DNA from: Eledone cirrhosa
Lineage: Eukaryota
NCBI GenBank assembly: GCA_964016885.1
Contig: OZ024741.1
Location: 170,686,001 to 170,750,000 of the forward strand
Length of the DNA stretch: 64,000 bases
Reading direction: 5' to 3'
Below the pieces are notes generated by a model, which had not been told where the DNA came from, did no database searches, and saw only the letters and a program-made list of their open reading frames with translations. A program made the position numbers and the translations under genes. Below are positions 11,309 through 61,978 of the stretch, piece by piece (positions within the stretch are counted from its first letter, which is position 1; every line of letters begins with the position of its first letter).

Positions 11309-11466
11309 AAAATGGAAAACGAAGAATCAGTGATGCATCGTAATAAATTGTGTTCCGATGCATCACTGATTCTTCGTTTCCCATTTTATCATACTCTGTT
11401 CCTAACCAGCATAGACTGCTCAACCGGCATACCGCCTATGGTCTCATCCTAACAACCATACGACAT
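11309..11466 (+). mobile_element. Foldback element in (TA)n
   Basis: aaaatggaaaacgaagaatcagtgatgcatcg is inverted ~15 nt later; the long arm continues into an ACTC-led tail. Confidence 0.75.
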
Positions 11467-12199
11467 ATAGATAGATATATAAAATTAAATAGCTCTGTAC
11501 TATGCATAGAACACTTTTCTTTCCTTTACCTTTTCCACGGAAATACTTAACACACACACACACACACATATATATATATATAGAGAGAGAGAGTGATTTA
11601 AGAAGAAACAAGGATCATGTAGTTGCTGGATAAGCTGTACTTATAAATAAGAGGAAAGCACGAGAACATTTTCCTTCATCAGTTGTGTACAGGATATTTG
11701 TGTCATGGATATTTCTACGCTTTAAAAACAAGATTCCTAACCCCAGTGTATCATAGATTTGGAGAACTTTTGAGCACAGGTAACAGCTAGCCTAGGACAA
11801 AACATAAATAGTATCAAGAAAACTGTTTGTCATTGTTGATACTGCTGTTATCGTTGCGGTCACTGCTGTTGATGTAACAATTGCTTTGCAAAATAATAGA
11901 CTGTATGTTATTTCTAGTAGACTGAACAGCAACAAATGAGTTTTCTAGTGTTCACTCCATTGGCATGAAAGCTACAATCCACCATGAATTATTAAGGCGC
12001 GAAGAAATTAGCATTGTGTCTATTATTTTGTAGAGAAATTGAAACAATTACAATTGTCTTACCTGCTTATTCATTGGTTGGCTTGTTATATTCCGTGTCA
12101 TTTCAAAGTTCATCTATGATCACAAAGTTCAACGTGACACGGAATTTAAGGGAAATTAGGCTACTGTTTTGTTAGATCGAGTCACTTCATAGGAGCTTC

Positions 12200-12880
12200 C
12201 TCTGTTTGTCGTACTCCTGATCAGGAAAGATCATGAATGTTATCCAACCATCTTGCTCGCGGTCTACCCTTGGGTATGTTGCCTGATGGTTTTACCAGTA
12301 AAATCTGTCCAGCGATTCTTTCCTGAGACATTCTAACCACATGCTCGTAGTATCGGAGCTGTGATTCTCAATTCGGAGAAATAGTGCCTCTAAATGGACT
12401 GACTCTCTGATCTCCGAGCTACGTACTTTATCGTGTAACCTTAATCCAAAGACACTTCTGAGGTTTCCTATTTCTGCCGTTCATATTCACGATCGTATTC
12501 TTTCAGTCATTACCCAAGATTCCTGATCATAAAGTATTCTGACAGACTATCCGCCGAATTTGTAAAAAGAAGTCCTCCCCCACACCTACTATCAAGAACA
12601 CGTCTGGAGTTCTCCTCTCTTCAGAGAGATGCATCCTCACGAGGTGAAGAGAATACTTTGCTGATCTCTTAAACCTGATCACAGCAGCATCTTCGGTGTA
12701 CACGAGGTGCATCTGGGAGCGGTGACTAATCTATCAGAGGCCGAGGTTGCAAGAGCAGTTAAAGAGCTTAAATGTAGCAAAGCCGCCGGGGAAGACGAAA
12801 TCACGCCCGAAATATTAAAAGCCTTAAATAGAGAAAGTATTCTCTGGCTGACTCGTGTGTGCCGGGTAGCCTGGATCTCT
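12200..12880. mobile_element. Decayed RTE-clade LINE with inverted 5' piece
   Basis: Minus 12200-12525: SQLRYYEHVVRMSQERIAGQIL...GRPRARWLDNI; plus 12530-12880: EVARAVKELKCSKAAGEDEITPEILKAL (RT domain 0). Confidence 0.75.
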
Positions 12881-13326
12881 GTTTTTGCCATACAGTGTTA
12901 TATAAGTTTTGCCATACTGTGATTTATTATATATGTGAAAGCCGAAGAATATTGTTTTATCACTGGTTTGTAGTTTTTTGTATAAGACTATATGTGGTTT
13001 GGATAGAGTTCAGACATTGTTGAGTAGATCAAGTGAATCATACCATGACCATCCAACGTCAATTTCTCACATAGTCTTGCTGTTTAGCACCAATGAATCA
13101 TTTAGAAACATGTTAAGGTTTTAACAGATGAAGTGACGGTGATGTTTGGTAATTATATGGGCAATGATGATGAAGAGAAGATAACGATATTGATAGAGGT
13201 GGTGGTGGTGGTGGTGGTGGTGCTGATGATGGTGGTGGTGATGATGATGACAGATGATGATTCTACTGATGTTGAAGGTGATGATGATAGGGTTGGTGAT
13301 GGTAATGACGATCATGATTATGATTA

Positions 13327-13760
13327 TCCTTACGGGGTCGATAAAATAAAGTACCAGTAATGCACTGGGTAATTGCTGGCCTTGTGCCAAAAGTAGAAAC
13401 AATTATGATTAGGCTATTAGGAGTAATAATTATTTCTTCTTATGGCACAAAGCCACCAATTATCCCAGTGTATTACTGGTACTTTATTTTATTGATCTCG
13501 TAAGGATGAAAGGCAAAGTTAACCTCGGTGGCATATGAACTCAGATTGTAAAGGGGAGTAACTCTATGCTGCAAGCATGGCGCCAACCTTCTACCGATAC
13601 TGCCAATCCACCGCCTTTCTATTAATAATTGTTTCTACTTTAGGCACAAGGCCAGCATTCAACCAGTACATTACTGGTACTTTATTTTATCGACGCCGTA
13701 AGGATGAAAGGCAAAGTCAAATTGTTTCTACTTTTGGTACAAGGCCAGCAATTATCCAAT
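13327..13760. mobile_element. Cluster of family A SINE pieces (13327-13405 +, 13430-13617 -, 13625-13760 -)
   Basis: Core and tail matches. Confidence 0.85.
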
Positions 13761-58914: not shown

Positions 58915-59117
58915 ATAATGGTTTCTGATTGAGGCACAAGGCCATCAATTTGGCGGGAAGGAGAAAGTCAATTAAATTGACTCCAGTGGTACTTTATTTA
59001 ATCGACCCTGTAAGAATAAAAGGCAAAGTTTACCTCAGCGGGATTTGAACTCAGAATGTATAGGGACACAACTCTATACTGCGAAGCATGTTGTCCGACG
59101 CTCAACCGATTCTGCCA
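58915..59117 (-). mobile_element. Family A SINE
   Basis: Core and B-box match. Confidence 0.82.
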
Positions 59118-60059
59118 AAACAAAATAATATTCGTTTAGTCATAGGCTTACATAGGCCTACAGTGTTGATCTCAAAAACAACAACCACCACTTAGTTTCA
59201 ATGCGCCAAGAAAGAACTGCTAGAAAAAGCAGCCAACCCTCACTATAACCCCACCCTATTTCTTTTTAAAAAACAGAGACATTCGCTAATGGTGACTGAG
59301 ATATGCTGAAAATAAATTCTGTAATGGTATAACTAGAAATACTTTGATCACAGCCCTGCTTGGTCAAGGTTGACCAAAGAAACATTAACTACAGGTGAGA
59401 TACATATGGTGTTCATGGGGATGATTTCACTCTGGAAATCAATTTTCCCACTATGCTTAGTTGTTCAGTATGAACCATTTATTTTGTTTAGCTAAATTCT
59501 ACTACTTTATCTGATAAACACACCGTTATCTATCAGTCATCCAGCTGTTGGTGAAGCTTAGTACAGTAATTTCATGTTAGTTTATTTTTTTAAATAGTCG
59601 ACAAACAAATGCTTATCATTAGTACCACAAATAGACAAGCTGTTTACTTGGAGTAGAAAATCAATTTATCATCTCAGAGACCGAAATAAATAAACCAATT
59701 GAAGAATCGCGACATAGAATAAATATGTAAACAAGAACATTCAAATTCATGTAATAAACAGTTGACAGTGGAGCAGCTCTTGGCTAATGATATAATCTGT
59801 GTTTGTAGAAGTCTGACAAATGTAGTTCGTTGTTTCACTAATACGCAACTTACCGATGGTTCTGCTGAAGAATTGAATAGAATTCGTAACGTTTGCATTC
59901 CTTCAACTGTTGAAATGATTATATCCATTAATACAAAACACTATTCATATACAGCTTACACATATATATATATATATATATATATATATATATATATATA
60001 TATGAAAGACGTAAAATAAGAAAATTATAAAAGTTAACTTACTTACTAAAATTTCACTC

Positions 60060-60655
60060 CAACTAATAGGTATGCATAGGTATGCATCTGTATATATATA
60101 TGTTGGTAGATATACAATTCTTTATAATTATCTCCAAATTATTTTGTTGAGCAAAAATTTGCCAAAACTGCTACTATAGTTCATAGTAATAGTTCGGCTA
60201 CTGTCTTCTTAACACTCCACTTCTCACTGATTAACCTCGATGTCACGTGACTGATTCTTTTGAATTTGCCACCGACCAAATAGGCAGTGATTTTTTTTCA
60301 ATGTCTTGGAATTTAGTCCTCGCTTGCTTTTTTCCATCCACTGAATTATTTTTGTATAAGTTCCCTGTGTCCACGCATCGCCTGGGAACTTAGCTGAGAA
60401 TTGACTTCCTGATGACGAAAGGTATTCTCCATGTTGTTCCATTCGGAAACCATGTTTATTCCATTTCAGAAACTAATTAGTTGGACTGAAATTTTAGTAA
60501 GTAAGTTAATTTTTATAATTTTCTTATTTTACGTCTTTCATATTATTGTTCTGAATCCCCTTGCATTGAACCACAAAGTTACTAAGACAAAACCTATATA
60601 TTTGCTAGCATAGGTATGCATCTGTATATATATGTTGGTAGATATACTAATTCTT
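60060..60655 (+). mobile_element. Family H3 unit (~530 bp) with partial terminal repeat and hammerhead at 60406-60485
   Basis: CTGATGA c-gaaagg...ccatttc-a GAA ACTAATTAGT T gga; homologous to 19166-19824 but circularly permuted. Confidence 0.82.
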
Positions 60656-60954
60656 TATATATATATAACAGAACACACTCACTGTTTGGTTGGTTTTCGC
60701 TTTTCTCTTCTGTGTCTTTTATATCGGTTAATTTAATTTATTCGGTCCTCAATGACCAACGGTCAAAAATACAGATACAATATAGACACAAACATATATA
60801 TATAGGTTATCAAAGTTATAACAATATATATATATATATATATATATATATATATATATATATATATATATATATATATTCTTATATAAAGTTATAACAA
60901 TATATATATATATATATAGTCTATCAAAGTATAACAATATATATATATATATAT

Positions 60955-61978
60955 TTTGAGTATATGTTTGTTGTATACCAACACCTCAGTATGCACCTGG
61001 AGCACTCGACGAAGTGCGCAGGTTGGTTTGGTTACTCTGGAGTAATGTAAAATAAATTTAAATAAAAAGTCAAATGTTTAAAATTTAGCTTCGTTTATTA
61101 CTGTTATATATATTTCAGTGACAGCCATCTTTGGCTGTGACATCTTCAGGCAGTTTGAATTAGTGTGGTATAGACAAGTAGATATGTTGTTGAGGTGTAT
61201 AATTTTGTCAATACTCTCATATGCCCAGTTCCTGGTTGGGTTGTTATTTCACTGAGGAACTGGAATAATATGAATTCAAACAAACGAATTTCAGTGTCAA
61301 AGGGCGTCTTCTCCTCTCATTGGTCAGTTATTAGAACATTCCTCATTCTAAGTGTTGTTATTGTTGGAGTTAGCTTAAACAATTGATAAAGTGGTAGAAC
61401 GGACAAGGTGTTAAAGGAACAAAATAACAAAAAAGTGTCAAACTTCCCATTGATCAGTTATGAGAGCATTCCTGAGTCAGACGTCTATAGAATTCTTTCT
61501 GGGGTGAGGCTCCCTGTAGCCTCACCCCAGAAAGAATTCTATAGACGTCTGACTGAGGAATGCTCTCATAACTGACTAATGGGAAGTTTGACAATTTTTT
61601 TGTTATTTTGTTCCTTTAACACCTTGTCCCTTCTACCACTTTATCGATTTTTTAAGCTAACTCCAACAATAACAACACTTAGAATGAGGAATGTTCTAAT
61701 AACTGACCAATGAGAGGAGAAGAGGCCCTTTGACACTGAAATTCGTTTGTTTGAATTTATATATTATTCCAGTTCCTCAGTGAAATAACAACCCAACCAG
61801 GAACTGGGCATATGAGAGTATTGACAAAATTATACACCTCAACAACATATGTACTTGTCTATACCACACTAATTCAAACTGCCTGAAGAGGTGACAGCCA
61901 AAGATGGCTGTCACTGAAATATATATAACAGTAATAAACGAAGCTAAATTTAAAACATTTGACTTTTTATTTAACTTT
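60955..61978. mobile_element. ~920-bp palindrome (family H5) with a hammerhead in each arm (61100-61154 -, 61878-61932 +)
   Basis: Centre gaggct ccctgt agcctc at ~61515; actgc CTGAAGA 11-bp stem II GAA ATATATAT A acagt; terminal hairpin 61004-61043. Confidence 0.92.

Follow-up and report, generated by a model that had tools for sequence, protein, structure and literature searches.

Paired ends and a duplicated bulged hairpin in Hydra-clade Penelope-like elements of Eledone cirrhosa

The stretch of DNA analysed here (the window) comprises 64,000 nucleotides (nt) of the 3.0 Gb genome of Eledone cirrhosa (GCA_964016885.1, contig OZ024741.1, positions 170,686,001-170,750,000). It contains many head-to-head palindromes that lie within (TA)n microsatellites and carry type I hammerhead cores, as well as an open reading frame (ORF) of a Penelope-like element (PLE). 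The palindromes are the ends of PLEs, which protein motifs and a hairpin shared between families assign to the Hydra clade. Two kinds of end were observed: a tail-less end lies before a first hairpin (hairpin 1) and a tailed end before a second one (hairpin 2), just upstream of the ORF, and almost every palindrome combines one end of each kind.

As hallmarks of the Hydra clade, Craig et al. (2021, PMC8557442) give RWK-type, DKT and CxCX5C motifs, hammerheads and (TA)n targeting; twin hairpins are not mentioned in the Hydra section of that paper. Insertion into (TA)n was found here as in the Hydra clade. The closest protein match of the window ORF came from an octopod (45% identity). DKT, a modified DKG, was present in the window ORF, in family G (loci L127 and L130) and in family A (L033). 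The N-terminal motif read RWK in family G and RWT in family A, and the corresponding region has been lost from the 5'-truncated window ORF. The CxCX5C linker was found in the window ORF and in families A, G, and L; that ORF and families A and G also showed the CxxC and CxH motifs near the C-terminus. At the C-terminus, where Hydra-clade PLEs have a GIY-YIG endonuclease, a YxG-type domain was visible by eye; Pfam reported no family for either of the window frames. The type I hammerhead core pattern occurred in families E, F, L, and others, and near -200 in many relatives from metagenomes; Rfam returned two Hammerhead_1 matches, both under the gathering score. ORFs homologous to that of the window are attached to families A, G, H, and L, and the other families were assigned to the group through the shared hairpin. 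In family G, the genomic copies L127 and L130 carry both the Hydra ORF and hairpin 2, and the ORF stays open for at least 446 amino acids behind this hairpin. The window copy has no hairpins of its own because neither of its arms extends as far as a hammerhead or hairpin. It is also frameshifted; a repaired version of its protein had been suggested for an in vitro priming assay in an earlier note on this DNA.

The unselected sample consisted of the window and 1.4 Mb of blocks from the same genome (1.46 Mb in total), the selected sample of 120 loci chosen via exact anchors upstream of both end types. As the first genome search over-sampled tailed arms, L002-L030 were excluded from the counts of pairing, arm length, end intervals, end distances and motif-less classes. 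De novo clustering grouped 2,215 junctions into 72 recurrent classes. Twenty of these classes had the hairpin in half or more of their read-through copies, and two of the twenty look like chance folds; six classes had no read-through copy, and the remainder were tailed ends, other two-ended classes and other repeats. The metagenome relatives comprised 78 loci, 64 of them with upstream DNA; these loci are mutually related, and only exact duplicates were removed.

Copy ends and the twin hairpins

The hairpin consists of a 4-bp stem (NYTC/GARN), a 2-nt bulge on the 3' side (TT, TC or TA), one to three conserved upper pairs and a free loop. The outer-pair variants seen were GCTC/GAGC, ACTC/GAGT, TCTC/GAGA, and GTTC/GAAC. 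The elements are arranged in the order hammerhead, hairpin 1, hairpin 2 and ORF, in the metagenome relatives typically with the hammerhead at -200 and the hairpins at -110 and -45. In families H, G, C, and L, the copies that read through have hairpin 2 directly behind the tailed end, 45-75 nt ahead of the ORF where an ORF was seen. Families A (20,597 exact anchor matches in the genome) and J served to test a prediction: hairpin 2, expected to follow their tailed ends, was searched genome-wide and found in both. The family A pattern gave 270 genome matches, compared to three for a swapped control, with the hairpin in 98 of the 100 matches listed; the family J pattern gave 16 matches, about 13 of them with the hairpin.

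When the end positions of ten families were mapped relative to the hairpins, as the earlier note had proposed, 166 of 327 ends abutting (TA)n were located ahead of hairpin 1, another 155 occupied the tailed site and six were elsewhere. The distribution was not uniform, as 321 of the 327 ends fell inside two intervals that make up 17% of the reference span. Family J, the eleventh, was left out of this count because its reference sequence contained an interrupted TA tract. The claim that the hairpin and not AT tracts sets the ends was upheld by decoys: 13 internal alternating-AT tracts (5-11 nt) took one end in 282 passages, and an 11-nt tract among them took none in 52. Across 19 site classes, the last shared base lay 1-10 nt before the stem in 262 of 279 ends (median 4). 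The read-through arm terminates at (TA)n 64-124 nt further on, and this extension is the known PLE 'tail'. Target-site duplications are unreadable inside such (TA)n flanks.

The earlier note had described 12 sites at which a short arm merges into (TA)n about 3-20 nt before the hairpin stem, while a long arm reads through. This observation was confirmed, and its interpretation was supported in part. At all 12 sites, one copy enters the microsatellite just before the NYTC stem and another reads through; the distance was 1-12 nt on a strict reading and -1 to 8 nt by local alignment bridging single mismatches. At 19824, the copy that reads through (hairpin at 19309-19332) is arranged in direct tandem and does not form an inverted arm. 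The copy at 48693 does end before the hairpin, but about (CT)6 separates it from (TA)n. The end at 56125 precedes a stem, but one of the hairpin-2 type, so that it is probably a tailed end (judged by eye), and for 11309 the hairpin, at 11393, is degenerate. Half of the system, the tail-less end, had been recognized; the second hairpin, the coupling of the ends and the identity with the known tail had been missed.

At least one hairpin was found in 58 of the 64 metagenome relatives and at least two in 39, with 101 matches compared to 2.6 after shuffling, and the spacing between hairpins was 44-101 nt. When only CTC and GAG were required, the bulge was TH in 88 of 92 hairpins. Upper pairs one to three were paired in 75, 57, and 55 of these (shuffled means 59, 41, and 35), and alternative bulge lengths paired the first upper position in only 10-16 hairpins. 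An ACTCT-like single strand was also conserved 3' of the stem (L291-L368; A in 75, C in 87, T in 83, C in 57 and T in 84 of 92). Eighteen of 24 second copies of the pseudo-long terminal repeat (pLTR) in the relatives ended -1 to 9 nt before a hairpin, after three self-overlapping matches had been dropped. Only five of these 18 ends were flanked by (TA)n; the other 13 show that (TA)n is not required. Folding energy alone failed to single out the hairpin, and Rfam gave no family for it, the matches being repeat-driven microRNA models and the two sub-threshold hammerheads. No paper on twin hairpins or strict end pairing was found in a literature search that had subscription papers and Repbase entries outside its scope, and the accessible part of bioRxiv 10.64898/2026.07.22.740005 does not mention the hairpins.

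Clean junctions shared on average 2.9 nt with the phase of (TA)n, compared to 1.6 nt when cuts were placed at random 3-11 nt ahead of the stem, and at least 2 nt were shared by 85% of the junctions vs. 41% of the cuts. Sharing reached 6 nt in 11 of 201 clean junctions, and extra bases were present at 78 of 279 ends. This weakens the annealing to (TA)n proposed in the earlier note, in that the pairing would be short. Of 79 hairpins in the relatives, 52 had an alternating UA run of at least 3 nt between -9 and -3 (32.9 after shuffling), and this excess was absent in two intervals further upstream. The hairpin defines an interval, within which two to three base pairs probably choose the exact base.

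A (CT)n run was located between the element end and (TA)n at 8 of 29 family L tailed ends, compared to 110 of 6,944 unselected TA-tract sides. Cases were observed at 48681-48692 in the window and in L072, L073, L077, L078, L086, L087, and L089, and the run appears where the element terminates in TC. It could originate from stuttering of the reverse transcriptase (RT) or from later slippage; a pre-existing (CT)n(TA)n target was unsupported in the two of eight cases having a partner end. Later duplication of an imperfection, of the kind treated in PMC2644718, is possible.

One tail-less and one tailed end per insertion

Head-to-head pairs numbered 155 in 21 families, and both ends could be classified in 109. 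Of these palindromes, 105 joined a tail-less to a tailed end (expected 54.5; p = 9e-27), two joined tailed to tailed and two tail-less to tail-less ends. This mixed pairing excludes independent choice of the ends and later loss of the tail. The arm lengths differed widely within families (35-280 nt in A, 58-428 nt in H). Among 93 pairs, the central spacer was part of the tailed arm 19 times and of the tail-less arm 16 times, while 48 were symmetric and 10 unclear; the 'short' and 'long' arms of the earlier note therefore describe the tail only.

An assembly fold-back artefact was rejected as the source of the palindromes, as the two arms are not identical and many loci share the same fixed end sites. 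That a single master palindrome has propagated was rejected as a general cause because arm lengths vary, although clustered values (A near 181, J 57-72, E 70-80) could represent propagated units. Inversion joints in families E, J, and c48 are concentrated at short distances from the ends, those of family E in the vicinity of the hammerhead core, which suggests that cDNAs join at stem-loops.

Models of priming and comparison with known systems

In the reading we favour, with a probability of roughly 0.68, each bulged hairpin (NCTC...TH-GAGN) recruits an RT that starts copying on one nicked target strand. A read-through RNA would carry both hairpins, and the nuclease would nick both strands of AT-rich DNA. 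Each 3'-OH would then pair, roughly 5-6 nt ahead of a hairpin, with two or three bases of the UA patch; two RT protomers, one per hairpin, would copy toward the RNA 5' end. The two cDNAs would join at variable points, giving the head-to-head palindrome, and the 'tail' would be the distance separating the two hairpins. For Poseidon_Ac (PAc), Frangieh et al. (2024, PMC11167929) report two internal RT starts downstream of the hammerhead that match both tail ends in vitro, extension of both strands and a predicted dimer, all of which fits a model with two protomers. A bolder version, possible but doubtful in its full form, has a Hydra RT dimer dock on two tandem hairpins of about 25 nt in one RNA and use 2-3 bp to prime the two strands of a staggered cut simultaneously, sometimes stuttering to add new repeats such as the (CT)n of family L. 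If it were true, the hairpin would be a portable start signal, the PLE counterpart of the template-recognition side of telomerase, and the first cis-signal to explain both the PLE tail and the inverted pLTR.

Several points weigh against the two-hairpin reading. The evidence presented here is DNA sequence. Both arms copy the same upstream RNA, so that two RNAs or strand displacement would be needed, and the PAc start is reported not to be homologous to the target and to lie inside an AC-rich stem-loop (PMC11167929). A start at 5-6 nt fits only 134 of 201 clean junctions and family H tail-less ends lie 8-11 nt out, which leaves no strict ruler. Selecting whichever reference variant fits best, as well as subsequent (TA)n slippage, may have inflated the microhomology, and the conservation counts are inflated by kinship among the metagenome loci. 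In the relatives' hairpins, the fourth upper pair gave no signal (34 of 92). The lower stem was present in about 10 of 16 minimum free energy folds, and z was at or below -2 in only two of 16, one of them for a different fold; as the isolated hairpins fold weakly, stabilisation by a protein is presumed. Finally, nine other two-ended classes without the NCTC/GAGN hairpin pair alike (15 of 17 classifiable), with tails of 35-72 nt. Pairing is therefore general and the motif lineage-specific, not universal. The motif-less classes are C14, C18, C39, C45, C49, C51, C53, C56, and C63 (e.g., 53039-53109 in the window).

The alternative that comes closest is a fold-back, in which the tailed end alone is RNA-primed, the cDNA copies itself and the tail-less end results from second-strand priming on DNA or from nuclease resolution. 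Fold-back forces one tailed and one tail-less end, the 48 near-symmetric junctions among 93 fit it, and both self-priming and nuclease resolution have been proposed for PLEs (PMC3846280; PMC8557442). It leaves unexplained, however, why the same hairpin, offset and UA patch are found at both sites, and in 16 pairs the tail-less arm extends further 5' than the tailed arm, which a simple fold-back cannot copy. In Poseidon, both tail ends are reported as RNA-templated starts (PMC11167929). We consider fold-back unlikely. Less probable still is RNA processing, by which transcripts would be cut just before each hairpin and the RT would prime at the 3' ends, as in ordinary non-LTR elements. Identical end positions are what it predicts, and hammerheads are described as processing PLE RNAs (PMC4209133), but the strict pairing would remain unexplained; in Poseidon, the RNA downstream of both starts is moreover required, and a longer 3' end leaves the start in place (PMC11167929).

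Two further explanations appear highly improbable. All copies might insert with a tail that slippage between an internal AT tract and the flanking (TA)n later removes. The mean junction microhomology of 2.9 nt is compatible with such a deletion, but it is refuted by the pairing counts (two tailed-tailed and two tail-less pairs among 109); better internal TA tracts went unused, and the relatives have the same ends on non-(TA)n flanks. Just as improbably, the ends might follow any AT-rich tract by annealing to (TA)n, with the hairpin incidental. That the ends sit on short TA-like patches (85% vs. 41% sharing at least 2 nt) would favour this, but the single end at decoy tracts in 282 passages refutes it. 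The hairpin is also kept across unrelated pLTRs, and family G ends cluster with only 1-2 nt of homology, a per-family illustration from a sample that included the tailed-biased L002-L030.

Internal priming, which the earlier note had proposed, has been observed in vitro in another PLE clade (PMC11167929), and we infer it here. The genomic ends in our elements are consistent with the PAc pattern of two starts that are located downstream of the hammerhead and match the tail ends, and the AT-rich target is common to both systems. They differ in that PAc belongs to another clade and has a start in an AC-rich stem-loop inside the ORF, while here both starts would precede the ORF and each would have its own copy of the conserved hairpin behind it. 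Here 2-4 nt of microhomology and a conserved UA patch were found, unlike the PAc start with its lack of homology to the target. In the literature, the PLE 'tail' is a stretch that may lengthen one of the two ends of an insertion flanked by inverted pLTRs, and it is ascribed to nuclease resolution or antisense self-priming; the passages in question (PMC3846280; PMC8557442) give neither an RNA signal for the tail nor a count of end pairing. Such an extension was present on one end in 105 of 109 pairs, although with 64-124 nt in the hairpin families it exceeds the known 30-40 bp. Internal initiation and the tail were already known; the duplicated conserved RNA signal and the near-obligate end pairing are new. 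How PLEs come by their tail and inverted ends has been a standing question ever since the first description of these elements. With a duplicated short RNA signal that predicts both ends to within a few bases, the question comes within reach of mutagenesis, and the hairpin may provide a compact signal for internal priming.

PLE RTs are the sister group of telomerase, which itself uses few primer-template base pairs. In both cases, an RNA element beside a short template region would position a related RT. The likeness to a telomerase template boundary drawn in the earlier note has the wrong polarity: that element is situated 5' of the template and brings synthesis to a stop (PMC5855555), while the hairpin lies 3' of the start and read-through copies and tailed arms have been copied through it. 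In position, the hairpin rather resembles the telomerase template recognition element, located between template and pseudoknot (PMC5855555). This is a likeness of position.

In L1 twin priming, both target strands prime cDNA in one event, which results in a 5' inversion; the internal site of the second priming varies, and there is no overlap between the segments. In the elements described here, the position of both sites is constant, and the overlapping arms form a palindrome.

Elements and further repeats in the window

The coordinates of the PLE features are given in Table 1.

Table 1. Features of Hydra-clade PLEs in the window (strand in brackets).
Feature	Coordinates	Details
Family D palindrome	11307-11417	Tail-less end 11307 (-); degenerate hairpin 1 11393-11417 (+)
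Family E palindrome	18912-19092	Tailed arm (-), hairpin 1 18965-18983; tail-less end ~19092 (+)
Family F read-through tandem copy		Hairpin 1 19309-19332 (+), GTTC/GAAC variant; degenerate hairpin 2 19427-19447
Family F terminal pLTR	19696-19826 (+)	Type I hammerhead core 19696-19732; tail-less end 19826
Family B palindrome	20189-20615	Tail-less end 20189 (-); hairpin 1 20531-20576 (+); tailed end ~20615
Family G palindrome	20674-21133	Tail-less end ~20675 (-); hairpin 1 21009-21060 (+); tailed end ~21133
Family A palindrome	22754-23052	Tail-less end ~22754 (-); hairpin 1 22961-22985 (+); tailed end ~23052
Family C palindrome and tandem	38792-40050	Tail-less end 38792 (-); hairpin 2 39424-39441 (TCTC/GAGA) in read-through copy; hairpin 1 39984-40025 in tailed arm
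Second family A palindrome	40234-40428	Hairpin 1 40234-40258 (-); tail-less end on +
Hydra-clade PLE ORF	43993-46598 (+)	RT and putative C-terminal nuclease domain; DKT, CxCX5C, CxxC, CxH; frameshift near 45246-45285; inverted partial copy 42353-44048; own pLTR ends missing
Family H palindrome and tandem	47612-48651	Tail-less end 47612 (-); hairpin 1 48034-48058 and 48574-48598; hairpin 2 48117-48156; tailed end ~48651
Family I palindrome	48692-48995	Tail-less end 48692 (-), ~(CT)6 ahead of (TA)n; hairpin 1 48898-48931 (+)
Family J palindrome	52785-52983	Tailed arm (-), hairpin 1 52838-52861; tail-less end 52983 (+)
Family K inverted/tandem element	54646-56127	By eye: read-through hairpin-2-type stems 54920-54937 (-) and 55572-55589 (+); variant hairpin 1 (TG bulge) 56050-56075; end at 56127 probably tailed
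Second family F palindrome	60000-60571	Tail-less end ~60000 (-); hammerhead core 60409-60449 (+); hairpin 1 60548-60571 (+)
Family L palindrome	60953-61980	Tailed end ~60953 (-); hairpin 1 61004-61043 (-); hammerhead cores 61113-61149 (-) and 61883-61919 (+), TA-rich decoy after core; tail-less end 61980 (+)

At 47521-47670, and also in L072, L073, and L095, two ends of the same family face each other tail-to-tail over one (TA)n tract, which could reflect repeated insertion into the same tract or a single event. Family H further occurs as non-coding tandem units of about 540 nt bearing both hairpins (L098-L120), which form retrozyme-like non-autonomous arrays. Within the window ORF, a long Asn/Ser-rich spacer (45285-46060) separates RT and putative nuclease, comparable to the N-rich inserts of Adineta Penelope described in PMC3846280. 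A second, distinct PLE is located at 50261-51693 (-), where Pfam detected GIY-YIG and RT fragments; its RT frame is broken at (TA)n by an apparent hairpin-bearing end (51691-51716). Fragments of other non-LTR retrotransposons were found at 27200-28893 (RVT_1 match for 27200-28063) and 25805-26215, and positions 13644-18469 are taken up by a long tandem array, complex and based on trinucleotides, whose open frames are of low complexity.

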